From Thermodesulfobacteriota bacterium (GTDB lineage Bacteria; Desulfobacterota; Desulfobulbia; Desulfobulbales; SURF-16), in contig JBDLJA010000005.1 of the NCBI GenBank assembly GCA_039714595.1, positions 41,890 through 105,889 on the forward strand: a stretch of 64,000 bases of DNA. The letters are read 5' to 3'. Shown here piece after piece: positions 21,381-41,103 of the stretch. Each line of letters opens with the position of its first letter. Within the stretch, counting starts at the first letter, position 1. The position numbers and the translations under genes are program-made. The notes under the pieces were generated by a model that was given only the letters and a program-made list of their open reading frames with translations, was not told the origin of the DNA and did no database searches.

Positions 21381-23651
21381 GTGATGAGCGAAAGCGGCCC
21401 TGCCCCTGACAAAACTCAAAAGATCCTCTTTCTCGGCTCCAACGCCAAGATTCACAACCTGCCCATCAAGGAGGTGAGCCTGCTGGAAGAGGGGAGCCTG
21501 CCCTCCTATGGCTATAATCCCGGCGATTTTGTCGAGCTGCTGGCCGGCTCGGTGAGTGTTGAGCGCGGCCGCCTGGACCAGTGCGTCACCTGGCTCTCAA
21601 CCTACCTCACCTCAGAAGAGCTCAGCCCCGAGATCACCACCATCACCTATGGCAAGAAGAAGGATATCTTCCAGATCTTCCGTAAACATAGCCAGAGTGA
21701 CATGTCCCAGAAACATGGCTGGTTCATGGTCCATCAGATCCTGCCCTTCTGCGATCGCGGCGAGGACTATGAAAACTTCACCATCAACCGCCACAATCGT
21801 GACCAACTCAAGGACCAGGACGGGGTAATCATAATTGACGACGGCGGCCACCCCCCCCAGGTGGCGGCGGAGTTGAAGAAGTTGAGCCCCGACGCCTGGG
21901 TCATCGGCATGGGGATATCGGTGGCCCACTGGCATACCTGGGCCAAGTCATATGGCGACAACTTCATCCTCCTGGGCCGTTTGGCCGACCTGGAGACCAC
22001 CCGGATGGAGATGGACAGCTCGGCGGTGTGGGAATCCATCGTGGCCATGTGCCTGCGGGCCCTGCGCTCTTCAGAGGTGGGCATCTGGGACGCCAGCCAT
22101 AACCGCTTCCGCTGCCACGTCATGATCGAGATGTTTCCCCACGGCATCCTGATGATCTCGCCGGAGCGCATCTACTTCCGCCATCGCCCCGGCTCCCTGC
22201 CGGAGAAGAGTTCGTCGCGCCAGAAGGGTTCCATGCCCGCCTACGACACCCTGGTGGCCGCCATGCTCACCACGGAAAACATCCGGGCCCGGGGGCTGAT
22301 GAGTGGCCGGGACCACATTCACCTCTTCACCAAGATGGTCCTGGCCCACTGGCAGTGGCTCCACGAGAAGGGCTACTGCTTCGACGGCTCCCTGCGCTTT
22401 CCCGTTCTAAACTCCACCCCCCCTTACCTGGAGAGTGAGTCGTACGATAACGACCTGCCGCCCGACCCGTTTTTCATCGAGCTGCCCCCCTTCTCCGACC
22501 CCTTTGACAAGACCCTGGAGCAGGTGGCCAGCCAGAGCTGGAACGAGGCGAGCAAGGCGGGCCTGCGCTCGTTTTTTGACCAGTCCCACCTGAAATCGCG
22601 GCCCAAATCGCAGCTTGCCCCCCTGGGCTACATGGATATCATTTTAGAGGTGATCCACCAGCTGAAAGAGGAGGTGAGCCGCAAGCAGGGCTTCAAGAAC
22701 CTGCGCATCTTCAACGTGGGCCACCTGCGCACCACCGACCCGGCCGAGATCGGCCCGGTCCTCACCCTCCAGTCGGTGATGGACTCCTACGTCTCCAAGG
22801 AGAGCTTCCAGCGCCCCTTATGCATCGGCGTCTTCGGCCCCCCCGGCTCCGGCAAGTCGTTTGCCGTCAAGGAGGTGGCCCGGGTGATCGGCAAAAAATT
22901 CAACGAGAACCCCTTTGACTTCTATGAGTTCAACCTCACCCAGTTTGACTCGCCGGACGAGATAAACTCATCCATCGACCTGGTCCGGGCCTCGGTGGCC
23001 CAGGGCAAGGTGCCCATCACCTTCTGGGATGAGTTTGACTGCCGCTACCAGGACCATGAGTTTGGCTACCTGCGCTACTTCCTGCCCTCCATGCAGGACG
23101 GCGTCACCTACAACCATGGCACCCCCTACTATATCGGCCGCTCCATCTTTGTCTTTGCCGGCGGGGTCAAGTCCAACTGGGGGGGGATGGAGGCGTTGCT
23201 TGACCCGGACGACCAGGGCAGCCTCCAGAAGGCCAAGACCCTGAAGATCCCTGATTTTATGAGCCGGCTGCGGGTGGTCTTAGATATCGACGGCATCGCC
23301 ATCCCGGAGGAGCTTTTGCGCGACTCGGCCAGCGGCCAGGAGCTTGAGGAGCTGCGCCGCATCTTGCTGAAACGGGCCTTTATCATCGCCCATCAGATGG
23401 ACACCCACTGGAAGAAGGCGGCCCGCAAGACCTCGGGCCTGCTCCTGCGCCTGCTTCTGGCCAACTATAAGTTCGGGGCCCGCTCCATCGAGGCGGTGAT
23501 CGAGGCGAGCCGGGCCGCCGACCGCCTGGTCTACGGCCTGCCGGAGCTCATCGGCCCCTCCGGGGCCCGGATCCACGCCGACTGGCGGGTGGACCTGGAG
23601 CGCCGCATCGATCAGGTCCGCAAAGAGCAGGGCTTGCGCTCGGTCTGGTAG
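21381..23651 (+). CDS. Orphan 756-aa protein: degenerate pfkB/ribokinase-like N-terminal half + classic AAA+ ATPase C-terminal half
   Basis: C-terminal half has Walker A GVFGPPGSGKSF, Walker B ITFWDEFD, FLPSMQDG, FVFAGG and a GARSIEAVIEAS sensor-2-like segment. By eye the N-terminal half follows the pfkB order (KILFLGSN..., DGVIIIDDGG..., SMPAYDTLVAAM in place of GAGD). The start could be the ATG at 21384. Confidence 0.85.
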   Translation: MMSESGPAPDKTQKILFLGSNAKIHNLPIKEVSLLEEGSLPSYGYNPGDFVELLAGSVSVERGRLDQCVTWLSTYLTSEELSPEITTITYGKKKDIFQIFRKHSQSDMSQKHGWFMVHQILPFCDRGEDYENFTINRHNRDQLKDQDGVIIIDDGGHPPQVAAELKKLSPDAWVIGMGISVAHWHTWAKSYGDNFILLGRLADLETTRMEMDSSAVWESIVAMCLRALRSSEVGIWDASHNRFRCHVMIEMFPHGILMISPERIYFRHRPGSLPEKSSSRQKGSMPAYDTLVAAMLTTENIRARGLMSGRDHIHLFTKMVLAHWQWLHEKGYCFDGSLRFPVLNSTPPYLESESYDNDLPPDPFFIELPPFSDPFDKTLEQVASQSWNEASKAGLRSFFDQSHLKSRPKSQLAPLGYMDIILEVIHQLKEEVSRKQGFKNLRIFNVGHLRTTDPAEIGPVLTLQSVMDSYVSKESFQRPLCIGVFGPPGSGKSFAVKEVARVIGKKFNENPFDFYEFNLTQFDSPDEINSSIDLVRASVAQGKVPITFWDEFDCRYQDHEFGYLRYFLPSMQDGVTYNHGTPYYIGRSIFVFAGGVKSNWGGMEALLDPDDQGSLQKAKTLKIPDFMSRLRVVLDIDGIAIPEELLRDSASGQELEELRRILLKRAFIIAHQMDTHWKKAARKTSGLLLRLLLANYKFGARSIEAVIEASRAADRLVYGLPELIGPSGARIHADWRVDLERRIDQVRKEQGLRSVW

Positions 23652-23767: not shown

Positions 23768-23844
23768 GCACCAGTAGCTCAGCTGGATAGAGTACATGAC
23801 TACGAATCATGGGGTCGCAGGTTCGAATCCTGCCTGGTGTACCA
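23768..23844 (+). tRNA. tRNA-Arg (anticodon ACG)
   Basis: Folded by eye into a cloverleaf. Acceptor GCACCAG/CTGGTGT, D-arm AGCTCAGCTGGATAGAGT, anticodon stem CATGA/TCATG with loop CTACGAA, T-arm GCAGGTTCGAATCCTGC, encoded CCA. Confidence 0.93.
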
Positions 23845-25828: not shown

Positions 25829-28800
25829 TTAGACCATGGGGATCGCCTCGCATCCTGGGCCGACAAGGGAGCTTCTGCCGCCGGAAATTGGCACAATATT
25901 GATCTGGGTGGCTATCCGCTCTTTCAGGGCCGAGACATGGGAGATAACGCCGATCAGTTTGCCATCCTGCTGTAAACCTCCCAAGGTCTCCAGGGCTGTC
26001 TCCAGGGCATCCGCATCCAGGGTGCCAAACCCTTCATCAAGGAAGAGGGAATCGACCCGCACCTTGTGGCTCGCCATTTTTGAGAGGCCAAGGGCCAGGG
26101 AGAGGCTGACGATAAAACTCTCACCACCGGAAAGGTTCTTGGTGGAGCGAATTTCCCCGGCCTGATAATTATCAACAACATTAAGTTCAAGGGGTAGTAC
26201 CTCATCACGGATCAACAGGTAGCGATCCGTCATTTCGGCCAGCTGCCTGTTGGCATGGGAGATCATCAGTTCAAAGGTCAAGCCCTGGGCAAAATTGCGA
26301 TACCTCTTGCCATCGGCTGAACCAATTAAGCCATGCAGTTTCTCCCAGCGGCCCCACTCTTTCTTCTGAGATTCCACCACCAGCCACTTCTCCTTGAGCC
26401 GCTCCTGGGCAACGGCGTGCTCAGCGAGCTTGTGCTGCAGCCCGGCAATGGCAGCCCTGAGGGTCTTAAGCTCCTCGCCAAGGTCCCTAAGTTGCGGCTC
26501 CAGCTCCCCGAGCCCTTTGAGGGTCACCTTCTTAGCCAGCTCAGCGGCTAAACGATTCTCGCGGTCACTCTGTCTGGCCGCAAGGGCCGTCTGGCCATCA
26601 TCGAGCTCCCTGGCCTTGGCCGCCAGGCTATCCCGCGCCGCCACGGGCAGGCGAGTTGCGCGGAACTGTTTTTCATCAACAAAGCCAGCCGGCGGCAGAG
26701 AGGCAGAAAAATCCGCCTCCATCTTCTTCAGCTCAGCCCCCCTTTGCTCAAGCCGTTCCTGGAGGGAGGCGACATTGGTCATGCTGGAGTTCCATCTCTG
26801 CCGCGCCTCTTCGTGCTGGCCCCTGGCCTCTTTTTCCGCCAGCTCGGCCGCGCTAATGGCCCTGTCCAGGCGCAGCTCTTCATCAGCAGTTTTTTTATCG
26901 CCAAACAAGACCTGGCGCTGGTCAATGCCAAGGGCATATTCCTTTCTGACGGCAGACAGGGCCTCCTCTTTTCCGGCCAGATCCCTGCTTCGTGTCTCAA
27001 TAAGGGCAGCAAGCCGCTGCAACTCACCGTCCAGTCCAATCAGTTGTTTTTCTACTGCCGCTTTTTTCTTAACCTGGGCCTGCCACCTGGCAAGGCGCGC
27101 CTCTAACGATTCCAGCAGGGCAGAGGGGTCCGACTCCCATTCTCCAATGCCAAGGGGGGCCAGTTTGGCCAACACGGCGTTCTGCAACTCGGCAAAACCG
27201 GCCCTGGCCGCGGCCAAACTGCTAACAAGAGTGGCAACTCTTTCTTCAGCGACCTTATTTTCAGCCAGAGCGGCCGCTTCCAGCTTTTCGCTGGCCACCA
27301 GATTCTCCCGGGCTTGGCCCGCGGCTGTTTCCAGATCCTTGATTGCCGCCTCCTGATCTTCCGCCTTTCCTATCAGGCAGGAGAGCTCCCCAAGCTTTTT
27401 CTCTATCTTATCCGGCCCGGGATGGCCCTGAACAAAGGGGTGTTCCTCGGAGCCGCAGAGGGGGCAAGGTTTTCCCTCTTCCAGCCGGGCCCGCTGCTCT
27501 TCGAGGCTGGCAATCTTATCGAGAAACATCTTTTCCCGCAGCAGGGTCTCTTTCTCTCGGCGATATTCACGCAGCAGCCGGCCAGCCAACAAGCGGTTTA
27601 AACCCTCTTTCCCCTCGGCCAGGGTGTTAAGGGCGGCCGCCAACTCCTCTCCCCTCACCCCGCACCGCTTCCGGCAGGCCGCCAGTTTTTCGCCAGACCC
27701 CTTAAGGGCGGCTTTTGCCTTCTCCTCTTCATCCCCCTTCTGGACGATCTCCCTCTCTTTGGCGCTCAGATTGGCCAGCTGCTCGCGGGCTCCGGCAAGG
27801 CCACTTACCAGCCATTCATCCCGCGAATTCTCTTCCAGATATCTCTCCACCAGCAGCAAATCGTTGCGGGCCCCGGCCCGTTTTTTCTCCTCTTCCCCCT
27901 GGCGCAATCTGTCGGCAGCAATTTCTGCCCCATATTTCCTGCAGCTCCCCTCGCCCTCAACCACCGCCTTTTTCTGTTCAGTGAGTTTCTGGTCCAGGAG
28001 GCGAACCTTCTGGATAATTGGCGCGGTCTGCTGCCGCTCTTCTTTGGCCGCCCGGCTCTGCTCCTCGCCAGCATGGCGGGCTTTTTCTAGTTCTTGGCAG
28101 GAACCTGCCAGGACGGGCAGTTTATCCTCTTCACTTTTCAGGGCAGAGTGATCGGCGGCCTGCCCTTTGCGCACCTCTGTCAACCGCCCATGGACCCCGT
28201 CCAGCTCGGCCGCTTTCAGGGCCCGGCTCAGCCGTTGACGATCCGCTTTAAAGGCGGCAATCTCGCCCTGGAGCTTCTCAGACTCGCCAGCCAGGGAGCT
28301 GATCTCTTTTTTCAAGCCAGCAATCCCGCTGAGCCAGGCGATACCCTTTGCCATTTCATCTGTCTGGCCGACCAGCCCCTTCTCCTGCCTTTGCCTCTCG
28401 ACCAGTTCCTGAACCGTTTCCCTTTCCCTGTCCGGATCAAGAACCTCAATACCTGCCATTTCGGCCTCAAGAGCCTTAAGCTTTTCCCCCTCCAGGCGCT
28501 GGCGCTCATGCACCCGCCGGGAAATCTCCGAATAAATTTCCGTGCCGGTGATCTGCTCCAGGATAGGGGCCCGCTCATCGGTATTGGCCTTGAGAAAGGT
28601 ATCAAAACCGCCCTGGGCCAGGAGGATTGACCTGGTGAAGCGCTCAAAGTCCATCCCGGTCACGGCCGCAACCCGTTTGGCCACTTCCAGGAGTTTAACC
28701 TCTAAGACCTGGCCGGAATCTGCCGCCACTATCTCATGTTTGGGAGGTTGCAGATCACCGTCCGCCTTCTTCCTGGCCCGATGCTGGCTCCAGTGGCAGC

Positions 28801-29077
28801 GGAAATTCCCGGCCTGGGAGGCAAAGGTCACCTCGGCATAACATTCGCCGGTTTGCCGGGACATGATCTCATTGCCACTCTTATTAACCCTATTCAGTCG
28901 GGGCGTACGGCCATAGAGGGCAAGGCAGATGGCATCGAGGATCGTTGACTTTCCGGCCCCCGTGGGGCCGGTGATGGCGAAGATGCCATTGGCGGCGAAC
29001 TCCGGTGCGCTGAAATCAAGGCGCCAATGACCATAGAGGGAGTTAAGGTTTTTGAATCTGAGCTCAAGAATCTTCAT
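25829..29077 (-). CDS. sbcC: Exonuclease SbcC (SMC-like ATPase)
   Basis: 1082-aa ORF. N-terminal Walker A ITGPTGAGKSTILDAI, long coiled coil with a CPLCG zinc hook, C-terminal LSGGE signature and Walker B LFLDEGFG. Confidence 0.9.
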   Translation of the reverse strand: MKILELRFKNLNSLYGHWRLDFSAPEFAANGIFAITGPTGAGKSTILDAICLALYGRTPRLNRVNKSGNEIMSRQTGECYAEVTFASQAGNFRCHWSQHRARKKADGDLQPPKHEIVAADSGQVLEVKLLEVAKRVAAVTGMDFERFTRSILLAQGGFDTFLKANTDERAPILEQITGTEIYSEISRRVHERQRLEGEKLKALEAEMAGIEVLDPDRERETVQELVERQRQEKGLVGQTDEMAKGIAWLSGIAGLKKEISSLAGESEKLQGEIAAFKADRQRLSRALKAAELDGVHGRLTEVRKGQAADHSALKSEEDKLPVLAGSCQELEKARHAGEEQSRAAKEERQQTAPIIQKVRLLDQKLTEQKKAVVEGEGSCRKYGAEIAADRLRQGEEEKKRAGARNDLLLVERYLEENSRDEWLVSGLAGAREQLANLSAKEREIVQKGDEEEKAKAALKGSGEKLAACRKRCGVRGEELAAALNTLAEGKEGLNRLLAGRLLREYRREKETLLREKMFLDKIASLEEQRARLEEGKPCPLCGSEEHPFVQGHPGPDKIEKKLGELSCLIGKAEDQEAAIKDLETAAGQARENLVASEKLEAAALAENKVAEERVATLVSSLAAARAGFAELQNAVLAKLAPLGIGEWESDPSALLESLEARLARWQAQVKKKAAVEKQLIGLDGELQRLAALIETRSRDLAGKEEALSAVRKEYALGIDQRQVLFGDKKTADEELRLDRAISAAELAEKEARGQHEEARQRWNSSMTNVASLQERLEQRGAELKKMEADFSASLPPAGFVDEKQFRATRLPVAARDSLAAKARELDDGQTALAARQSDRENRLAAELAKKVTLKGLGELEPQLRDLGEELKTLRAAIAGLQHKLAEHAVAQERLKEKWLVVESQKKEWGRWEKLHGLIGSADGKRYRNFAQGLTFELMISHANRQLAEMTDRYLLIRDEVLPLELNVVDNYQAGEIRSTKNLSGGESFIVSLSLALGLSKMASHKVRVDSLFLDEGFGTLDADALETALETLGGLQQDGKLIGVISHVSALKERIATQINIVPISGGRSSLVGPGCEAIPMV

Positions 29078-29182: not shown

Positions 29183-30412
29183 CTAGCGGGCATTTTTATC
29201 TTCCTCAAGAAGATCATGGACTATCTCCCCATGGGCCGCAATCAGGGCCGGCCGCTCCTCCGGGGAGACGGCAAAGGAATCCAGGCAACGCTTGAAGACA
29301 TCGTTGACATCCAGCTCCTCCAGGCTCTCTTCCTCATTCAGCCGGCCAAGGACCCGCTCAACAATCTGTTTATTTTTGATGCGCCGAACCTCAAGCCCGC
29401 TCCCAGCCACGCTCTCATCAATCAGCAGCCGCAGATTGCCGATCACCTCCTGGCCACTGTATTCGATCTCCAGCCAGGCATTACTGCCCTGCTCCTTTAA
29501 GAACTCAATCTGGGCTTGAATCTCCGCCAGGGAGCCGGAAAGCCGGGCCAAGGGCTGGAAGCATGGCACGGCCAGCTCTTCGATGTGTGGCGCATCACTG
29601 CCAAAATCAACCAAGACAACCTTTTTCTCCTGCTTTGCCTCGCCAAAACCGCAGGGAATTGGGGAACCGGAGTAGCGCATATGGGCGGCCTGGCCCACCT
29701 GTTGCGGGACATGGAGATGACCAAGGGCCAGGTAGTCGATGCAGGCAGGAAAGGTATCGGCGCCAACCTGGGCCAGGGAACCAACATAGAGATCCCTGAC
29801 GCCATCACCGTCAATGGTCTTGCCGCCAGAGGTGAAGAGGTGGCCGGTGGCAATGATCGGCAGATCACCGACGAGCTCCTGCCTCTTCTGTTGGGCAATG
29901 GCGCCAACCGCCGCGTAATGGTCCCGGATGCCGGAGCTAAGCTTCTCCCTCTTCTCCTCAAGGGACTCACCCGCCCAGGCCGTCCGGATATCCCTGTCCC
30001 GCAGATAGGGCACGGCGCAGACAATGGCCTCCGGGCTCCCTTGCGAATCGGCCAAGACAATAACCTCGTCCCCGGGCTCAGCGCTGCTGGCGCCAACCAC
30101 ATGGACATTCAAGGCGCGCAACAGCTCTCTGGGGGCGTTCAGGAAGGAGGGGGAGTCATGATTGCCGCCAATGACAACAACATGGCGGCAACAACTGGCC
30201 GCAACCTGGCAGAGAAAGCGGTAGTAGAGCTCCTGGGCCCTGTTACTGGGGGTAGAGTTATCAAAGATGTCACCGGCCACCAGCAGGGTATCAATCCCCT
30301 GCTGGTCAATGGCAGCCGCCAACCAGGCCAGAAAGGCCGTATGTTCATCATAACGTTTACGGCCATAGAGGGAATGGCCCAGATGCCAGTCTGAGGTGTG
30401 GAGGAGTTTCAT
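29183..30412 (-). CDS. sbcD: Exonuclease SbcD (Mre11-type phosphoesterase)
   Basis: 409-aa ORF. MKLLHTSDWHLG, GDIFD, GNHD and GHLH calcineurin-like motifs; lies upstream of sbcC. Confidence 0.9.
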   Translation of the reverse strand: MKLLHTSDWHLGHSLYGRKRYDEHTAFLAWLAAAIDQQGIDTLLVAGDIFDNSTPSNRAQELYYRFLCQVAASCCRHVVVIGGNHDSPSFLNAPRELLRALNVHVVGASSAEPGDEVIVLADSQGSPEAIVCAVPYLRDRDIRTAWAGESLEEKREKLSSGIRDHYAAVGAIAQQKRQELVGDLPIIATGHLFTSGGKTIDGDGVRDLYVGSLAQVGADTFPACIDYLALGHLHVPQQVGQAAHMRYSGSPIPCGFGEAKQEKKVVLVDFGSDAPHIEELAVPCFQPLARLSGSLAEIQAQIEFLKEQGSNAWLEIEYSGQEVIGNLRLLIDESVAGSGLEVRRIKNKQIVERVLGRLNEEESLEELDVNDVFKRCLDSFAVSPEERPALIAAHGEIVHDLLEEDKNAR

Positions 30413-30587: not shown

Positions 30588-31100
30588 TTAACGGGTGACC
30601 AGCTCCACCACCACAAAGATCACCATGGCGGCGGTTACCGCCATCTCAAAGATAAAGGAGACCACGGTGCCCAGCACCGCGCCGAGGCCGGCCTTAAGCA
30701 CCTTCTCCTTCTGCCGGTCCCGCCACAGCTCGCCGCCCACGGCGCCGACAAAGGTGCCCAGCAGCATGCCGAAGATGGCCGAGCCGGGGATGGGCAGAAC
30801 CAGGCCCAGAAAGAGACCGATCACCGCGCCAACCATGCCGGCCCCGGAGGCGCCAAAACTCTTGGCCCCCAGCATGGTCAGGAGATACTGGCCGCCCACC
30901 GCCACCAGGGCGAGGACGGCCAGGATAGCGATATCCACCAGGGAGATGGGTAAAAAATCGGTGAAGAGACCGTAGAGCAGGGCGCCCACCACGATCAGGG
31001 CCGGGCCGGGAATAACCGGTAGCATGGTGCCGAGGATGCCAAGGGCCAGAAAGGCCAGGAGCATTACGTCGTAAATGGTCAGGAGGAGGAGCGAGTCCAT
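30588..31100 (-). CDS. DUF456-family membrane protein
   Basis: Hydrophobic multi-pass protein with Gly-rich helices (LPVIPGPALIVVGALLYG..., GASGAGMVGAVIG...). I moved the start to the ATG at 31100, 1 nt after the upstream gene's stop. Confidence 0.75.
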   Translation of the reverse strand: MDSLLLLTIYDVMLLAFLALGILGTMLPVIPGPALIVVGALLYGLFTDFLPISLVDIAILAVLALVAVGGQYLLTMLGAKSFGASGAGMVGAVIGLFLGLVLPIPGSAIFGMLLGTFVGAVGGELWRDRQKEKVLKAGLGAVLGTVVSFIFEMAVTAAMVIFVVVELVTR

Positions 31101-31101
31101 T

Positions 31102-31833
31102 TCAGCTGATAACCTGCCCCGTAGGCTGCCAGCCCGCGGCCGCCCCCTTACCCTTAGGGCGACGAAAGCACTCGACGATGTCACCCTCCCGGGCCTGATG
31201 AAAGTCCTTGATCTGCAGCCCCACCTCTTGGCCGGGCCGCGCCATTTTCACCGCGTCCTGCTCGATGTGGAGCGATCTGATCACCCCGCTATAGACCGGG
31301 CCCATGGCCGAGATAAGGCGGAAGGAGTCGCCCAAGCGCAGCAACCCCTGTTCCACCCGGCAACCGAGGATGATACCGTGCCGGGATGATTTAAAGAGGG
31401 CGATGACCTTTGCCGAGCCGGTCACCTCGTCTGCCTCCTCCCGGGCCGGCAGCAGGGAACGGGCAATACCCACCAGGTCGGCGCAAAGGGCATAGATTAC
31501 CTCATAGAGGCGAATCTCCACCCCATGTTCGGCGCAGAGCCTGACCAGCCGCCGGCCCACCGGGACGCTGAAGCCTAAGATCAACTTAGAGCCGGTCTCG
31601 GCCTGGAGCAGATCCCCCTGAGTCACCTCACCCACCCCGCGCTGGACAATGACAATCTCCACCCCGGCCACCTTGAGTTCGCTGATGGCACCGCACACCG
31701 CCTCCAGGACGCCGGCCGTATCCGCCTTGACCACGATCTCCAGGAGCCTAGTATCGTCCCCACCATCATGACGGGTCACGGGACCAGGCGCCGGTGCGCC
31801 TCTCTTACGCCTATGTTTTCTGCGGTGGGCCAT
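31102..31833 (-). CDS. Stand-alone paralog of the translation initiation factor IF-2 C-terminal domains (no G domain)
   Basis: The 243-aa ORF aligns by eye along its length with the IF2 C1/C2 region. VVKADTAGVLEAV...GVGEVTQGDLLQA...ILGFSVP...GVEIRLYEVIYAL compares with E. coli VLKADVQGSVEAI...GVGGITETDATLA...LVGFNVR...LDLRYYSVIYNL. The C2 beta-barrel part ...GCRVEQG...VYSGVIRSLHIEQDAV...GQEVGLQIKDF...GDIVECF is also present. The basic N-terminal tail MAHRRKHRRKRG replaces the GTPase. RBS GAAGGA. Confidence 0.8.
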   Translation of the reverse strand: MAHRRKHRRKRGAPAPGPVTRHDGGDDTRLLEIVVKADTAGVLEAVCGAISELKVAGVEIVIVQRGVGEVTQGDLLQAETGSKLILGFSVPVGRRLVRLCAEHGVEIRLYEVIYALCADLVGIARSLLPAREEADEVTGSAKVIALFKSSRHGIILGCRVEQGLLRLGDSFRLISAMGPVYSGVIRSLHIEQDAVKMARPGQEVGLQIKDFHQAREGDIVECFRRPKGKGAAAGWQPTGQVIS

Positions 31834-31877
31834 CTTTTCCTTCCCCCAGTACCCTTAACCAGGCAGCCTTGGGCCTT

Positions 31878-32867
31878 TTAATCCCCCGCCTCACCGGGGC
31901 AACAGACCAAGCGGTTGCGCCCTCCCCTCTTGGCCTTATAGAGCATGCGGTCCGCCTCGGCAATCAGCTGGCCGGGATTGTCAGGGTCGCACTCCTTTAA
32001 CGAGGCAACCCCGACACTGACGGTGTTGATATGGGAGATATCACCACTGACGTAAGGGGTTGACTTACAACTCTCGACAATACGGTTGCCCACCTGCTGG
32101 GCCGCCTCCAGATCACTCTCCGGCAGCAGGACCAGAAACTCCTCGCCGCCATAGCGAAAGGCGATATCCGCGTCGCGCAGGGAGGCCTTGATGCGCTGGG
32201 AAAACTGCTGCAGCACCAGATCGCCAAAGGTGTGGCCAAAGGTGTCATTGGTATACTTGAAGTGATCCAGATCAATGAGCAGGCAGGAGAGGTCCTGATT
32301 ATAGCGCTTGCTCTGCTGGAACTCCTGGTTCAGCAGATGCATGAGCTGGCGCCGGTTATAGAGGCCGGTTAACTCGTCAACGATGCTCAGGTGGCGCAGC
32401 TGTTCCTCGATCTCATTCTTGCGCTCCAGGGTCTTTAAGAGGAGCCTGTTCTTCTCCTCCAGGGAATGGATCAACTCCGCCTTGTCCATGTGGACCATGT
32501 AAAGCTTCATGGCATCGTTGATGGCGGTGCGCAACTCCTCCTCCTGGACCGGTTTGGTGATAAAACGGAAGACCTCGCCACTGTTGATGCAGGGCAGGAG
32601 CTGGCCGGTCTGGGTATAGGCGCTGAGAACGATGCGGATGGTTTCGGGGAAACGTTGCTTGATGATCTCCAGGAGCTGCAGGCCGTCCATCTCCGGCATC
32701 TTCATATCGGTGGCAATGATATGAATGGGGTTTTCCGCCATGATGGCCAGGGCCTCGGCCCCGCTCAAGGCAAAGAACTGGCCGTACGACTCCTTGCGCA
32801 GCAGGCGCCGCAAGGCGTTGAGGGTGTATTGTTCGTCATCGACAAACAGAACATTCATATCAAGCAT
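31878..32867 (-). CDS. Response regulator receiver + GGDEF diguanylate cyclase
   Basis: 329-aa ORF. Receiver (VLFVDDE...TDMKMPEMDG) and a GGDEF domain with an intact RYGGEEF active site. Confidence 0.88.
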   Translation of the reverse strand: MLDMNVLFVDDEQYTLNALRRLLRKESYGQFFALSGAEALAIMAENPIHIIATDMKMPEMDGLQLLEIIKQRFPETIRIVLSAYTQTGQLLPCINSGEVFRFITKPVQEEELRTAINDAMKLYMVHMDKAELIHSLEEKNRLLLKTLERKNEIEEQLRHLSIVDELTGLYNRRQLMHLLNQEFQQSKRYNQDLSCLLIDLDHFKYTNDTFGHTFGDLVLQQFSQRIKASLRDADIAFRYGGEEFLVLLPESDLEAAQQVGNRIVESCKSTPYVSGDISHINTVSVGVASLKECDPDNPGQLIAEADRMLYKAKRGGRNRLVCCPGEAGD

Positions 32868-33149: not shown

Positions 33150-33395
33150 ATGAAGAGCTGTCTATGCCCCAAATGTCAAGACACCCCCCTGCAGCCTGCC
33201 CGCCGCAATGGGGTGGAGATCGATTACTGCCCCCAGTGCAACGGCATCTGGCTGGACAACGGCGAGTTAAACCGAATCATTACCAGGGTGGGCAGTAAGG
33301 GGGGCGGCAAGGTCATCTCCAACAAGCCGGACAAGGGGAGTAAGCCGGCCATGAAGGTCATGTCCTCCCTGCTCGACATCCTTGACCTGGACTAG
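33150..33395 (+). CDS. Zinc-ribbon (TFIIB-type zf) small protein
   Basis: 81 aa with CPKC...CPQCNGIWLDNGEL; GGAGGAG RBS upstream. Confidence 0.7.
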   Translation: MKSCLCPKCQDTPLQPARRNGVEIDYCPQCNGIWLDNGELNRIITRVGSKGGGKVISNKPDKGSKPAMKVMSSLLDILDLD

Positions 33396-34525
33396 AGGGG
33401 TTCTTCTGGCAGGGCCCCCCTGGCCAGCTGCCCGCAGGCGGCGGAGATATCACTGCCCCGGCTGTCCCGGACAAAGGCGCGGATTCCGGCCTGGTAGAGA
33501 ATTTTTTTGAACTCTATGATCACCTCTTCCCCTGGCCGGCAATAGTCGAGTCCGGCCGACTCGTTGTAGGGCAGGAGGTTAACCCGGCAGGGGACGCCCT
33601 GGAGGAGAAGAGCCAGTTGCCGGGCCTGCTCCGGTGAGTCGTTGATCCCGGCCAGCAGGATATACTCCATGAGGATGACCCGTTTGCGGGCCAGGGGGAA
33701 TTTTTTGCAGGCCGCCAGCAACCTCTCCAGGTTGTGGCTGCGGTTCACCGGCATCAGCCGGCTGCGCGTCTCATCGTCGGCGGCGTGCAGGGAGATGGCC
33801 AGGTTGACCCGCGCGTCGCGCCCCAGATCCTCGATGCGGGGGGCGAGACCACAGGTGGAGACGGTGACCCTGCGCTCGGTGAACTCCAGCCCCTCCGGGG
33901 CCATGAGGATCTTCAGGGCCGCGATCAGGTTATCGTAGTTGGCCAGCGGCTCGCCCATGCCCATGAAGACCAGGTTGTTGATATACTCCCGCGCCGTTGC
34001 CCGCTTAACCCCCTTCTCTTGCAGATAAGCAATCACCGCCAGCACCTGACCAACGATCTCAGCCGGGCGCAAGTTACGGACCAGCCCCATGGTCCCGGTG
34101 AGACAGAAATCACAAGCCATGGCGCAACCCACCTGGGAGGAGAGGCAGAGGGTGAGGCGCTCACCCTGGGGAATGAGAACAGTCTCAATGAGACGGCCAT
34201 CATCCAGGCGGAAGGCGAACTTTGTGGTGCCATCCTCGGACACCTCCGCCGTCTCCACGGCCAGTCCGCTGATCCGACAACGCTGGGCCAGGGAAAGGCG
34301 GTACTTGCCCTTGAGGCCGGCCATTCCGCCAATATCAACGCAACCGTACAGATAGATCTCCCTGAAGATATGGGGGGCCCGGGAAGAGGGGATGCCTAAA
34401 TCTTCCAGGAGCTGCCCCAGCTCAGGCATGGTGATATTTTTCAGGTCGACAAGGGCCAAAAAACTTCTCCCGGCAGGAATTTTTTGCGGCATAGCTGGCA
34501 GCCCATAATAACCCCTGGAGGTCAT
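33392..34525 (-). CDS. rlmN: 23S rRNA/tRNA (adenine-C2)-methyltransferase RlmN (radical SAM)
   Basis: CLSSQVGCAMACDFCLTG radical SAM motif, GMGEPLAN, and C-terminal ...GSDISAACGQL. The exact start is uncertain. Confidence 0.9.
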   Translation of the reverse strand: MTSRGYYGLPAMPQKIPAGRSFLALVDLKNITMPELGQLLEDLGIPSSRAPHIFREIYLYGCVDIGGMAGLKGKYRLSLAQRCRISGLAVETAEVSEDGTTKFAFRLDDGRLIETVLIPQGERLTLCLSSQVGCAMACDFCLTGTMGLVRNLRPAEIVGQVLAVIAYLQEKGVKRATAREYINNLVFMGMGEPLANYDNLIAALKILMAPEGLEFTERRVTVSTCGLAPRIEDLGRDARVNLAISLHAADDETRSRLMPVNRSHNLERLLAACKKFPLARKRVILMEYILLAGINDSPEQARQLALLLQGVPCRVNLLPYNESAGLDYCRPGEEVIIEFKKILYQAGIRAFVRDSRGSDISAACGQLARGALPEEPL

Positions 34526-36233: not shown

Positions 36234-38822
36234 ATGCAGTTGGATAAATTCACCGTTAAATCCCAGGAGGCCCTGCAGGGGGCCCAGCAGCTGGCCAGCC
36301 AGCTTGGCCACCAGGAGGTGCGGCCCGTCCATCTGCTGGCCGAACTTCTGGCCGAGCCCCAGGGGGTAATCATCCCGGTTCTCCAGAAGATCGGGGTCAA
36401 CCCCGGCCAGCTCTCTGCCATGGTAAAGGAAGAGCTGGGCCGCATCCCCCAGGTGAGCGGCAGCGGCTTTGGCCAGGTCCATGGTTCCCAGGGGCTGCAG
36501 GAGGTGCTCAACAAGGGTCTGAGCGAGGCCCAGGCCATGCACGATGAGTACGTGAGCCAGGAGCATCTCTTCCTGGCCATCCTGGCCGCCAAGGATGCAA
36601 ACCTGGCCCGCCTACTCAAGGAAAACGGGGTTAAGCGGGAACAGTTCCTGAAGGCCCTGGCCGAGATCCGCGGTTCCCAGCGGGTCACCGACCCCAACCC
36701 GGAGGAAAAATACCAGGCCCTGGAGAAGTACGCCCGCAACCTCACCGACCTGGCTAAAGTAGGCAAACTGGACCCGGTAATCGGCCGGGACGATGAGGTG
36801 CGCCGGGTAATCCAGGTCCTCTCCCGCCGGACCAAGAACAACCCGGTGCTGATCGGCGAGCCGGGGGTGGGCAAGACCGCCATTGTCGAGGGTCTGGCCC
36901 AGCGCATCATCTCCGGCGACATCCCGGATAGCCTGCACGACAAACAGGTCTTAGCCCTGGACCTGGGGGCCTTAATCGCCGGGGCCAAGTACCGCGGTGA
37001 GTTTGAGGACCGCCTCAAGGCGGTCTTAAAGGAGGTGGAGGAGCGCCAGGGGGAGATCATCCTCTTCATCGATGAGATCCACACCCTGGTTGGCGCCGGG
37101 GCGGCCGAAGGGGCCATGGATGCCGGCAACATGCTGAAACCGGCCCTGGCCCGGGGCGAGCTGCACTGCGTGGGCGCCACCACCCTTAATGAGTTCCGGA
37201 CCATTGAAAAGGACGCGGCCCTGGAGCGCAGGTTCCAGCAGGTCCTGGTCCAGGAGCCGTCAACGGAGGACGCCATCGCCATCCTGCGCGGCATTAAGGA
37301 GAAGTATGAGGTGCACCATGGGGTGCGGATCAAGGACTCGGCCACGGTGGCGGCGGTGACCATGTCGGAGCGCTACATCAACGACCGTTTCCTGCCGGAC
37401 AAGGCGATCGATCTCATCGACGAGGCGGCCTCCAAGCTGCGCATCGAGATCGACTCCATGCCCACCGAGATAGACGAGGTGGAGCGCAAACGCCTCAAGT
37501 GCGAGATCGAACGGGAGGCGTTGAAGAAGGAAAAAGACGAGGCATCCCGCCAGAGGCTGGCAGAGGTGGAGGAAAAACTGGCCAACCTGGACGAGAAGCT
37601 TTCCGGCATGAAGGGCCACTGGCTCCTGGAAAAAGAGATCATCGGCCGGATCAGAAAGGTTAAGACGGATATTGACGAGGCGCGCCTTGAGGAGCAGCAG
37701 GCCGAGCGGCAAGGGGATCTAAGCCGGGTGGCGGAGATCCGTTACGGCCGGATCACGGAACTGGAGAAGCAGCTTGACCTGGAGAATAAAGAGCTGGCCG
37801 GAATCCAGAGCCAGCGCCAGATGCTCAAGGAAGAGGTGGCAGAAGAGGACATCGCCGCGGTGGTGGCCAAATGGACCGGCATCCCGGTGGACAAGCTCCT
37901 GGAGGGCGAAAAGGACAAGCTGGTCCAGGCCGAAGAGATCCTGGCCCGGCGGGTCATCGGCCAGGAGGAGGCGATAACCGCGGTGGCCAACGCCATCCGC
38001 CGCTCCCGGGCCGGCCTCCAGGACCCCAGCCGCCCCATCGGCTCCTTCATCTTCCTGGGCCCCACCGGGGTGGGCAAGACTGAGCTGGCCCGCTCTTTAG
38101 CCGACTTCCTCTTTGACAGTGACCAGGCCATGATCCGCCTGGACATGTCTGAGTTCATGGAGAAACATTCGGTGGCGCGGCTCATCGGCGCCCCTCCCGG
38201 CTATGTGGGCTATGAGGAGGGGGGGCATCTCACCGAGGCGGTGCGCCGCCGCCCCTATTCGGTGATCCTCTTTGACGAGATCGAAAAGGCGCACCCCGAT
38301 GTGTTCAACATCCTCCTGCAGATATTGGATGACGGCCGGATGACCGACGGCCACGGCCGGACAGTGGATTTTAAGAACTCCATCCTCATCATGACCTCCA
38401 ACCTGGGCAGCCAGCTCATCATGGCCAGCCAGGACAAGGAAAGTCTCAAGGGCCAGCTGGACGAGATCCTCCACGCCCAGTTCCGGCCGGAATTTTTAAA
38501 CCGGGTGGATGAGATCATCACCTTCCACAGCCTGAGCAGGGAGAACCTGGCCAACATCGTCGATATCCAGTTCGCCCTCCTCCAGGGGCGGGTGGCCCAG
38601 CAGCAACAGCTGGAGCTGAACTTAAGCGCCGAGGCCCGCGCCTTCCTGATCAACGCGGGCTATAACCCCGCCTACGGGGCCCGGCCCCTGAAGCGCGCCC
38701 TGCAGCGCCATGTCCAGGATCCCCTGGCCCTGCAACTGCTGGAGGGCAACTTCCCCCCCGGCTCCCGCATCACGGTACAGGTAGCTGCAGATGGCCAGCA
38801 GCTGGGATTTCAGGCCAAATAG
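36234..38822 (+). CDS. clpB: Chaperone disaggregase ClpB
   Basis: 862-aa ORF. Two AAA+ modules ([20 protein letters not shown]), a middle coiled-coil domain and a Clp N-domain. Confidence 0.95.
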
Positions 38823-39015: not shown

Positions 39016-41103
39016 TCAGTCGCTGGAGCTGGTGCCGACAAGGGAGACGCCGCACTCTAACTCAGCCATATCAACAATGGCCTCAGGGGTGACGGCGGGA
39101 CTGCAGATAAAGCCCTGAAAGAGCTCACAGCCCAACTCACGGAGAAATTGATGCTGCTCTTTACTCTCCACCCCCTCGGCCACCGTCTCCAGTTCCATGG
39201 ACTTAGCCAGGGCCAGCATGGTCCGGCACATGGCAGCGCCATCACCGTCCCGGGGCAGCCCCTTAATAAAACGGCGGTCCAATTTAAGCTGGGTCAGCGG
39301 CAGGGTATGGAGTAAGGAGAGGGAGGAGTGGCCGGTACCAAAGTCGTCCAGGGCAACCCCCACCCCCAGGGCGCGGATGGACTGGATAACCTCCAGGGCC
39401 TGGATGCGGTCGGCCAGGACGCCGCTTTCGGTAATCTCCACCAGCAGACAGTGGGGCCGGACACGATACTTGACCAGCATCTGGGCCAGGACATCGGGCA
39501 GTTCCGTGTCGCTGAGCTCCGCCGGAGCCAGGTTAACCGCGAGGCTGAAGGGGGTGTCGCCAGTGGCCAGGTGCTGGAAGGTCCGGCTGTAATCGGCCAG
39601 GGCCCGCTCTAAGACCCAGCGGCCCATGGCATGAATCAGCCCCGTCTCCTCCAGCAGGGGAATAAAACGGTTGGCCGGAATCCCCCCCCGCTCCGGGTGA
39701 TGCCAGGCCAGCAGGGCCTCCACCCCCACCACCCTGCCACTGGCAAAGTCCACCTGGGGTTGGTAGGACAACTGAAACTGCTCCTGGGCCATGGCCGCGG
39801 AGAGATCGTTCATCAGCTCCAGCTGCTCACTGTGCCATGAGTCGAGGGAGGGATCGTAGAGATGGACCCGGTCCCTCCCCTCTTTCTTCGCCTCATACAT
39901 GGCCATATCGGCGTGACGCAACAGATCACGGGCCATCTCTTCCACCTGGGGGGTGCGCTCCCCATGCAGGCGGCAGGTGGCAACGCCGATACTGGCCGAG
40001 ATGCGCACCATGCGGCCGTCAATCTCATAGGGGCGGCGCACCAGTTCGACAATCTGTTGGGCCAGGTGAACGCCATTCACCGGGCGCCCCACCGCCTCCA
40101 GGACGACGCAGAACTCATCGCCGCCCAGCCGGGCAAAATTATCCTCGTTGCGCAGCAGGTTGCGAATCCGATTGGCCACGGTCTGGAGAAGGATATCGCC
40201 CACCCCATGGCCCAGGTTATCATTCACCGCCTTAAAACCATCCAGGTCAAGGTAGAGCAGGGCCATGAGCCCCCGGCGCCGGGAACGCTTCAAGGCCTCA
40301 TGGAGCTGGAGGGTGGCGCTGTTACGGTTTAACAGTCTGGTGAGGGGATCGTAATGGGCCAGCTCCCACACCGACTCCTCCGCCACCCGGCGGGCGTCAA
40401 TATCGAGCATCACCCCCAGCATACCGCTCAGCTCGCCGGCCCCATCGCGCATGGTAACAAGCTTCAGGGCCACCCAGCGCTGCTGCCCCTGGCCGTCCAC
40501 CAAGCGCACCTCGACGTCCAGGGAGCCCTTCTCCTTAATTGCCTGGCCCACCTGCTGGCTGAGGGCGGCGCTGTCAGCGCCATGGACATTGTCCAGCCAG
40601 TTGCCCGCCCCAAGCTCATCCTCGGCCTGGCCCAGGAGCTGATAAAAACTACCATTGGCATGGACAAGCTGCAGATCGCTGTCCACCTCAAAGATACCCA
40701 GGGGCAGCAGCTTCTCTATCTGCTCGAAGTTATGGTGGGAGGAGGGAGGGGAAGCTGCACCATCGGGACGAACCCGGACAAGGTAATGGCTGGCCACCCG
40801 GGCGAATTTAAAGGAACGACTGACCCAGGAACCATCCGCCATCTGCAGCTCAGCAGTGATGTCGTCGTCCCGGTTCTGATAATGTTTGCTCGGCAGCAGG
40901 ATATCATGGAGGGTGGACGACTGGCCCAGCAAACCATCCTCGCCGCCCAGCAGATCCACGGCCCGCGGGTTGAAGTAGCAGACATGGCCACTGCCCGCCT
41001 CCACAACCAGCAGCCCCTCATCATTGTCATGAAACCAGGCCCCCAGGAGGGGCTCCAACTCACCCCCCTGATCTCCGGCCTGCCAAACTCTGGTACCTTC
41101 CAT
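39016..41103 (-). CDS. PAS-domain GGDEF/EAL signalling protein
   Basis: 695-aa ORF. N-terminal PAS-like repeats, a GGDEF domain (RLGGDEF) and an EAL domain (EITES...DDFGTG...KLD). Confidence 0.88.
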   Translation of the reverse strand: MEGTRVWQAGDQGGELEPLLGAWFHDNDEGLLVVEAGSGHVCYFNPRAVDLLGGEDGLLGQSSTLHDILLPSKHYQNRDDDITAELQMADGSWVSRSFKFARVASHYLVRVRPDGAASPPSSHHNFEQIEKLLPLGIFEVDSDLQLVHANGSFYQLLGQAEDELGAGNWLDNVHGADSAALSQQVGQAIKEKGSLDVEVRLVDGQGQQRWVALKLVTMRDGAGELSGMLGVMLDIDARRVAEESVWELAHYDPLTRLLNRNSATLQLHEALKRSRRRGLMALLYLDLDGFKAVNDNLGHGVGDILLQTVANRIRNLLRNEDNFARLGGDEFCVVLEAVGRPVNGVHLAQQIVELVRRPYEIDGRMVRISASIGVATCRLHGERTPQVEEMARDLLRHADMAMYEAKKEGRDRVHLYDPSLDSWHSEQLELMNDLSAAMAQEQFQLSYQPQVDFASGRVVGVEALLAWHHPERGGIPANRFIPLLEETGLIHAMGRWVLERALADYSRTFQHLATGDTPFSLAVNLAPAELSDTELPDVLAQMLVKYRVRPHCLLVEITESGVLADRIQALEVIQSIRALGVGVALDDFGTGHSSLSLLHTLPLTQLKLDRRFIKGLPRDGDGAAMCRTMLALAKSMELETVAEGVESKEQHQFLRELGCELFQGFICSPAVTPEAIVDMAELECGVSLVGTSSSD

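Follow-up and report, generated by a model that had tools for sequence, protein, structure and literature searches.

We examined a 64,000-nucleotide stretch of DNA from a Thermodesulfobacteriota bacterium (contig JBDLJA010000005.1, positions 41,890 to 105,889; hereafter the window, whose own numbering is used throughout), in which a small minus-strand gene encodes a stand-alone paralog of the two C-terminal domains, C1 and C2, of bacterial translation initiation factor IF2. This gene, referred to here as IF2C (31102-31833, minus strand, with its stop codon at 31102-31104 included), opens with ATG, specifies 243 residues and has, 4 nt 5' of the start codon, a sequence that reads as a Shine-Dalgarno-like site (GGGGGAAGGA, 31838-31847, minus strand). 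Its product is identical to MEN8140202.1, deposited as 'hypothetical protein ABFR97_03165' (entry P0001 in our list of homologs). All of its parts lie on the minus strand: a basic, His-rich N-terminal tail (residues 1-29, MAHRRKHRRKRG..., 31747-31833), predicted to be disordered from the model confidence; domain C1, or domain III of IF2 (residues 30-112, 31498-31746), delimited by the PF11987 match and the AlphaFold2 model; a linker and connecting helix (residues 113-135, 31429-31497; helix H113-126 in the model); the domain C2, or domain IV, beta-barrel with its putatively re-specified ligand face (residues 136-226, 31156-31428), placed by alignment with 1D1N; and a family-specific C-terminal extension (residues 227-243, 31105-31155) with the pattern W235-x-P237-x-G239, recognized in the alignment. 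Two genes flank it closely on the same strand. A response-regulator (RR) diguanylate cyclase gene with receiver (REC) and GGDEF domains (31878-32867) ends 44 nt upstream of the IF2C ATG, and a single base separates the IF2C TGA (31104-31102) from the ATG at 31100 of a gene for a 170-aa DUF456 membrane protein (30588-31100), forming a TGA-A-ATG stop/start junction that is read directly from the sequence (31098-31104, minus strand). These two spacings are exactly as given in an earlier reading of the window from sequence only.

That sequence-only reading had also aligned the protein along essentially its whole length with the C-terminal region of IF2 and described it as a C1-C2 unit without a GTPase, and both statements are borne out. 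Pfam IF-2 (PF11987) matches residues 27-119 with E=4.1e-22 and 78.8 bits, for a cut-off of 27, and GTP_EFTU_D2 gives a weak match, under the Pfam cut-off, on residues 154-220. The IF-2 model TIGR00487 is matched with E=3e-38, covering only profile positions 383-580 of 587, and the score of 131.9 bits lies below the equivalog cut-off of 424.4. In a phmmer search of PDB chains, residues 30-224 align with residues 688-881 of the 890 of Escherichia coli IF2 (E=5e-25), with further matches to mitochondrial IF2 (mtIF2; E~1e-24) and eIF5B (~1e-5); the C2 part aligns with residues 3-91 of the G. stearothermophilus (Gst) IF2 C2 structure (1D1N) with E=1e-12, and identity to the bacterial IF2 C-terminal region is about 33-38% over some 195 residues. 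The AlphaFold2 model, built from 34 family sequences, has a mean predicted local distance difference test score (pLDDT) of 87.8, with values of at least 95 across most of residues 30-225 and below 50 at residues 1-3 and 7-25. C1 is modelled as an alpha/beta fold with strands from E29-37 to E106-110, and the last residues of the extension are predicted, at a pLDDT of about 95, to form a beta bridge with the body of the protein. According to Foldseek, the model resembles domains III-IV of ribosome-bound IF2 (E 1e-16 to 1e-20) and superposes on 9hfo_7 and 5me0_W with a TMq of 0.69 and a root-mean-square deviation of 2.8-3.0 A. Pfam detects no G domain, and the protein begins 29 residues before C1; when eight full-length IF2s were compared by tblastn with the whole window in six frames, the sole match was at 31147-31764, and no remnant of the G domain or of domain II was found in any frame. 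No catalytic family of Pfam or NCBIfam matched the protein. By sequence and predicted fold, it is C1 plus C2 of IF2, far beyond chance.

A homolog search covering 5.8 billion proteins returned 364 homologs. The 120 that were listed are all 213-292 aa long, all contain PF11987 and, apart from the protein's own entry, are 46-58% identical to it. Loci were then gathered from species-representative genomes (80), from metagenomes (80) and from contigs of individual members, making 167 sequences in all (166 fetched loci and the window). The short form is present in 109 of these, in a stop-to-stop frame of 221-339 codons, and corresponds to 64 lineages at 75% identity; the rest are ordinary infB genes encoding 600-1160 aa, there are no intermediates, and the scores of the two groups separate without overlap (150-240 bits for the short forms versus 97-127 bits for infB). 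A profile search over 1.84 billion cluster representatives gave the same picture, with the family extending from 338 to about 220 bits, then a drop, and full-length IF2s beginning at 184 bits or less. In a neighbour-joining (NJ) tree that includes 54 IF2 C-termini, the family is monophyletic in 40 of 40 bootstraps, with a long stem branch (0.52 substitutions per site), and the window protein falls inside this clade. Within lineages, the ratio of nonsynonymous to synonymous substitution rates (dN/dS) is 0.13-0.30 (28 pairs). Members can be recognized by a length of about 213-292 aa, the motifs VIALFKSSRKG, SLHIE and GQQVG, the C-terminal W-x-P-x-G and their place in the clade; the window protein has all of these, in the versions VIALFKSSRHG, SLHIE, GQEVG and W235-Q-P-T-G239. 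We have thus shown, on comparative sequence grounds, a functional paralog of IF2 C1-C2 that arose once and has been kept under purifying selection in anaerobic Thermodesulfobacteriota and Nitrospirota as a gene of its own, coding for about 230-250 aa, and the structural model shows it as a protein predicted to fold independently of any GTPase part.

The carriers belong to two phyla. In the Thermodesulfobacteriota they are found in the Desulfobulbaceae, Desulfobacteraceae, Syntrophobacteraceae (including the cultured Desulfoferrobacter suflitae DRH4) and Deferrisomatales, and the carriers in the Nitrospirota form a clade that includes Ca. Sulfobium. Family members are annotated as 'hypothetical protein' by NCBI and as 'translation initiation factor IF-2' by JGI (P0008, P0011, P0093 and others). 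Among the curated family libraries searched, no NCBIfam model claims them, and text searches of the literature returned no description of an IF2 paralog lacking the G domain, in agreement with the impression of the sequence-only reading that such a protein had not been characterized. The family is a discrete, previously undescribed variant of a well-known IF2 module. A mobile origin was considered and rejected, as tblastn against phage and plasmid collections gave just ordinary infB at 35% identity or less. Fusions that might have revealed the function were also sought, and the candidates (P0137, P0133, P0135 and P0172) proved to be either fragments of true IF2 or members with frameshifts. Two of them, P0133 and P0135, belong to the family but lose the reading frame in their 3' halves, through sequencing errors or genuine decay. 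Another member, P0144 (217 aa), is divergent and has neither the FKSSRKG loop nor the W-x-P-x-G tail.

A column-by-column comparison of 58 family lineages with 54 IF2s, with numbering anchored on the 1D1N alignment, separates what has been kept from what has been rewritten. The core residues of C1 are retained from IF2 (K36, D38, G41, A45, G68, D74, G87, F88, R108 and Y110), as are the fold-determining motifs GVG, GFNV, IRLYxVIY, F147-K148, G157-C158, R172, G205 and GD..E, and VIY at 112-114 is conserved as in IF2. Two residues of the C2 ligand region are conserved in 100% of the family, namely C158 (Gst C668, the Cys of the IAGC strand) and G205 (Gst G715, the Gly of ECG). The best-conserved stretch of the family is the beta1-loop-beta2 segment of C2 (VIALFKSSRKGIILGC), with a mean majority fraction of 0.78. 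Two loops that lie around the fMet-CCA end in IF2 have been rewritten, and the new versions are conserved: the family has SL-H-I-E-x instead of the SL-K/R-R-F/Y-K-D-D of IF2 and G-Q-Q-V-G instead of G-x-E-C-G. In the first of these, codons H189-I190-E191 of the window gene (31261-31269, minus strand) stand in place of K/R-R-F/Y; the family frequencies are 0.86 for H, 0.90 for I and 0.67 for E, against 0.85 for K/R, 0.87 for R and 0.65 for F/Y in IF2. H189 corresponds to Gst K699 and E. coli R846, I190 (90% of family lineages) to Gst R700 and E. coli R847, and E191 to Gst Y701 and E. coli F848, a position that is E or G in the family. In the second loop, codon V204 (31222-31224, minus strand) replaces Gst C714, which is Cys in all 54 IF2s (1.00); in the family this position is V (0.86) or A (0.10). 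The position of Gst E713 is Q in the family (0.66), and Q202 is conserved at 0.90.

The fMet-tRNA site of Gst C2, which we take to consist of C668, K699, R700, Y701, K702, E713, C714 and G715, is thus not preserved as a whole: C668 and G715 are kept, and R700, C714, K699, Y701 and E713 are changed. Charge and termini differ as well. Linker and C2 together carry a net charge of +4 (pI 9.4) in the family and of -2 (pI 5.3) in IF2. The family N tail has a median length of 32 aa, 38% K+R+H and a median net charge of +4.5, and mostly starts M-x-H-[RK]-[KS]-K, typically M-x-H-R/K-K-K-H. In the family alignment A1, all sequences share W235 and G239 of the C-terminal extension and at least 90% have P237; the extension is missing from 96% of the bacterial IF2s compared. 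Mitochondrial IF2 (7po2_7, ~714-725) aligns with window residues 226-237, past the end of bacterial IF2, and so mtIF2 and the family both carry a short post-barrel extension.

In the window itself, the two flanking genes encode well-supported families. The DUF456 protein scores 100.6 bits with PF04306, against a threshold of 29.4 (E=1.1e-28; profile positions 2-138 of 139); as the Pfam homology begins only at residue 27, translation could start at a downstream Met. One DUF456 protein has been studied, the membrane protein YqgC of Bacillus subtilis, which has been linked genetically to manganese homeostasis (bioRxiv 10.1101/2024.02.14.580342). The RR-GGDEF protein (Pfam GGDEF E=1.8e-46, Response_reg E=1.3e-21) is matched by the NCBIfam PleD-family model and has the hallmarks of a diguanylate cyclase, with the acceptor-Asp motif DMKMPEMDG, RYGGEEF and, five residues upstream, the RxxD I-site RDAD. 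A promoter-like site is found upstream of its gene, at 33096-33068 on the minus strand, and no minus-strand terminator-like site was detected between the RR-GGDEF, IF2C and DUF456 genes. The RR-GGDEF gene is probably the first gene of a local operon, and it is plausible that the three genes are co-transcribed in the source organism, as they probably are judging from their layout. Since no good Shine-Dalgarno sequence lies at the right distance before the DUF456 gene, reinitiation at the TGA-A-ATG junction is likewise plausible, and the translation of DUF456 is probably coupled to that of IF2C in this way.

This arrangement is not a trait of the family. Iterated jackhmmer searches with the DUF456, REC and GGDEF sequences of the window over the 109 family loci found DUF456 within the fetched flanks of only six, which amount to two lineages (the window and one Desulfobacteraceae clade), with downstream coupling to IF2C in the window only; GGDEF was found in three loci, adjacent to IF2C again only in the window. 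A conserved IF2C-DUF456-GGDEF operon is hence rejected: the single transcript suggested by the sequence-only reading stands as a plausible local feature and falls as a family one, and the tethering at the membrane that it envisaged is left without comparative support, because the links to DUF456 and GGDEF are not family-wide. The occurrence of DUF456 in two independent lineages exceeds expectation for a roughly single-copy gene, but two events are too small a basis for a conclusion. In the Desulfobacteraceae clade (L004, L005, L006, L011 and L102), IF2C is third in an operon, after genes for an FHA-GAF histidine kinase and a single-domain response regulator, and the DUF456 gene is divergent from this operon, 2.4 kb upstream of IF2C (L004:3037-3516, minus strand; L004:3824-6687, plus strand).

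More generally, the neighbours of IF2C are diverse. Among 124 neighbour proteins from 31 lineages assigned with Pfam, Response_reg is the commonest family (10 proteins), followed by proC (5). DUF456 and GGDEF are both missing from the 25 commonest families tabulated, all of which have two or more members. In the majority of lineages IF2C has no REC gene next to it. The REC association is only suggestive, as such genes are common in the two phyla and the cases trace back to about four to five independent arrangements. The synteny with the broadest distribution, seen in nine lineages, involves a small, very basic Rho_N (HeH) protein whose gene lies on the same strand, about 150 nt upstream (for instance L100:5342-5710, plus strand, Pfam Rho_N E=1.6e-7; equivalents in L009, L013, L093, L103, L111, L119, L125, L138, L154 and L159). 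On the 3' side, these lineages have genes for an uncharacterized protein of about 160 aa, a divergent receiver-like protein of about 190 aa and TerB. Beside P0004 and P0003, two of the closest relatives of the window protein, a 1-Cys peroxiredoxin (AhpC-TSA) gene lies 150-200 nt downstream on the same strand (L168:5887-6474 and L169:5942-6529, plus strand), and the neighbours of the closest relatives are peroxiredoxin, transketolase, V-type ATPase genes or toxin-antitoxin genes. IF2C is usually preceded by 100-350 nt of intergenic DNA and looks monocistronic. An Rfam scan of the window and six family loci at the gathering threshold found only a tRNA and no RNA element near the gene.

What, then, might such a protein do? 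The conserved C2 face, the rewritten pocket, the basic barrel and the tail together point to the binding of an RNA 3' end in trans and without GTP. The reading that we prefer, tentatively, is that the family protein is a GTP-free trans binder of a tRNA or RNA 3' end, with a specificity unlike that of IF2. It would keep using the C2 face, its most conserved surface, with which IF2 grips the fMet-CCA end of the initiator tRNA, in a pocket re-specified by the changes Arg to Ile, Cys to Val, Lys to His and Tyr/Phe to Glu, on a barrel turned basic and with a newly gained Lys/Arg/His-rich N tail. As ligand we would most expect a tRNA acceptor end whose charging or modification differs from that of fMet-tRNAfMet. 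In place of the G domain and domain II, which provide IF2 with its general affinity for RNA or the ribosome, the protein would have its basic tail, and it would protect, sequester or deliver its ligand, thereby tuning translation. An autonomous C module is biochemically reasonable, since the isolated C2 of IF2 contains all the determinants of fMet-tRNA binding and binds as strongly as the native factor (reviewed in PMC4611024). Two points weigh against this reading. With the Arg and the Cys replaced, the binding of tRNA could have been abolished entirely rather than re-specified. Moreover, the neighbours are heterogeneous (two-component systems, proC, ABC transporters, peroxiredoxin, Rho_N) and none is translational, so that a role in translation receives no independent support from context. 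It is conceivable, if rather doubtful, that the family represents a new GTPase-less paralog class devoted to the 3' end of a specific non-fMet acyl- or aminoacyl-tRNA, or of another RNA, which it would shield or deliver, or on whose ester it would act through Cys158 with His189/Glu191; if true, this would be a previously unknown trans-acting layer of bacterial translation control in anaerobic sulfate reducers and syntrophs.

Other explanations have to be weighed against the binding of a different RNA 3' end. The sequence-only reading had suggested that a G-less IF2 fragment could compete for initiator tRNA or the 50S subunit, or be tethered at the membrane. Spelled out, the protein would bind fMet-tRNAfMet or the 50S subunit in competition with IF2, perhaps held at the membrane by the co-translated DUF456 protein and controlled by cyclic di-GMP. 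The fMet-tRNA affinity of the isolated IF2 C domain, equal to that of whole IF2 (PMC4611024), would suit such a competitor, as would the retained IF2-site residues C158, G205, K148 and R172, the tight TGA-A-ATG and 44-nt junctions in the window, the second occurrence of DUF456 beside the histidine kinase-RR-IF2C operon (L004-6, L011, L102) and the rank of REC, which with 10 of the 124 proteins heads the list of neighbour domains. However, Gst Arg700 corresponds to E. coli Arg847, and the single change of R847 to Gly markedly lowers the affinity of E. coli IF2 for fMet-tRNA (PMC8709274). With this position occupied by Ile in 90% of the lineages and that of Cys714 by Val in 86%, competition for the initiator tRNA is weakened; DUF456, near the gene in just 6 of the 109 loci (two lineages), is coupled to it nowhere outside the window, GGDEF adjoins it only there, and most lineages have no REC gene alongside. 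We regard an IF2 competitor as quite improbable. A role unrelated to RNA is also unlikely, if a little less so. Here the C1-C2 scaffold would serve as a protein adaptor, with the IF2 G domain or a response regulator as partner, or as a small-molecule or enzymatic module, in which an acyl or aminoacyl ester might be the target of Cys158 together with His189/Glu191. C158 (1.00), H189 (0.86), E191 (0.67) and Q202 (0.90) indeed sit in loops that correspond to those around the fMet ester in IF2, the Arg that makes the key RNA contact is gone, stress or redox genes (peroxiredoxin, HSP20-like, TerB) lie nearby in several lineages, and REC neighbours recur. Yet H189 and E191 vary within the family, as catalytic residues seldom do, no catalytic family is matched in Pfam or NCBIfam, and the raised positive charge of C2 together with the basic tail points to a polyanionic ligand.

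Two further explanations concern infB itself. In one, IF2 would be made as two polypeptides, with the window gene encoding the C-terminal half. No G-domain open reading frame adjoins the gene in any of the 109 loci, nor occurs elsewhere in the window; residues with a conservation of 87-100% in IF2 (R700, C714 and the E at position 72) are missing from the family, which forms a separate, long-branched clade with tails of its own; and IF2 is universal in bacteria (PMC3401457). Because of the missing G-domain frames, this divergence and the universality of IF2, a split infB is very improbable. In the other, the gene would be a 5'-truncated remnant of infB, as might be imagined from the fact that only the last ~200 residues of IF2 are covered. 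Against this, the frame is intact and equipped with an ATG and a Shine-Dalgarno-like site, its length is conserved over 64 lineages in two phyla, it evolves at a dN/dS of 0.13-0.30 with conserved motifs peculiar to the family, and tblastn over the whole window found no infB-like sequence upstream in any frame. The remnant explanation, which the sequence-only reading had named as its own refutation together with a failure of profile searches to support C1/C2 homology, is refuted by the selection, the length conservation and the lack of upstream infB sequence, leaving it a negligible probability; the profile searches found that homology well above threshold (PF11987, 78.8 bits for a cut-off of 27; C2 with 1D1N, E=1e-12). 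The gene is an intact one.

The family is best understood by comparison with known relatives. It shares with the C domain of bacterial IF2 (G. stearothermophilus; 1Z9B, 1D1N) the same two domains, in the same order and with the same predicted fold. However, the isolated IF2 C domain is obtained by proteolysis or recombinant expression, whereas the family is encoded by a separate gene; it has R700 changed to Ile, C714 to Val, K699 to His and Y701 to Glu/Gly, has a basic rather than an acidic C2, and adds a basic N tail and a W-x-P-x-G C tail. The homologous domains III-IV of mitochondrial IF2 and a/eIF5B are also followed by post-barrel extensions, the alignment with mtIF2 reaching residue 237, but these factors are full ribosomal GTPases and the family is devoid of both the G domain and domain II. 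E. coli itself produces the N-terminally shortened isoforms IF2-2 and IF2-3 from internal starts in infB, alongside full-length IF2. In contrast to the family, which is a diverged separate gene, these isoforms come from infB and keep the G domain, domain II and a canonical C2. A precedent for a translation-factor barrel acting as a separate tRNA-binding protein is Pbp11 of the Thermococcales (PDB 7ANU; NF041207), described as a small stand-alone tRNA-binding beta-barrel of the translation-factor type (PMC9540759). The window protein matches it weakly in C2 (E=0.0017-0.01), with 18.3 bits (E=0.0017) for the NF041207 model, far below the cut-off of 100 bits; unlike the family, Pbp11 is archaeal and consists of a single barrel of about 92 aa, related to translation-factor domain 2, without C1.

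The C2 domain of IF2 is the textbook module for the formyl-methionyl end of the initiator tRNA, and a widespread, selected and free-standing copy of C1-C2 whose pocket has been rewritten would be nature's own test of how the specificity of such a module can change. The family may point to a previously unknown factor that binds tRNA ends in sulfate reducers and syntrophs, bacteria of environmental importance. The idea is directly testable, given a cultured carrier (D. suflitae DRH4) and a small protein for which good folding is predicted. There is also a practical side. PF11987 serves as a phylogenetic marker in phylogenomic papers, and given this use and the JGI label, family genes can presumably be mistaken for infB or be counted as a duplicated marker in quality estimates of metagenome-assembled genomes.

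Further genes of the window lie around the putative operon. After the DUF456 gene and on the same strand come SbcD (29183-30412, minus strand) and SbcC (25829-29077, minus strand). On the other side, an 81-aa Zn_ribbon_TFIIB protein (33150-33395, plus strand) is encoded convergently with a 377-aa radical SAM protein of RlmN-like appearance (33392-34525, minus strand), the two reading frames overlapping by 4 nt. ClpB (36234-38822, plus strand) and a second cyclic di-GMP gene, encoding a 695-aa PAS-GGDEF-EAL protein (39016-41103, minus strand), are located 6-9 kb upstream of the operon. Finally, a 756-aa open reading frame with no Pfam match at E<=1e-5 (21381-23651, plus strand) is followed by the sole tRNA gene of the window, tRNA-Arg(ACG), at 23768-23844 on the plus strand.

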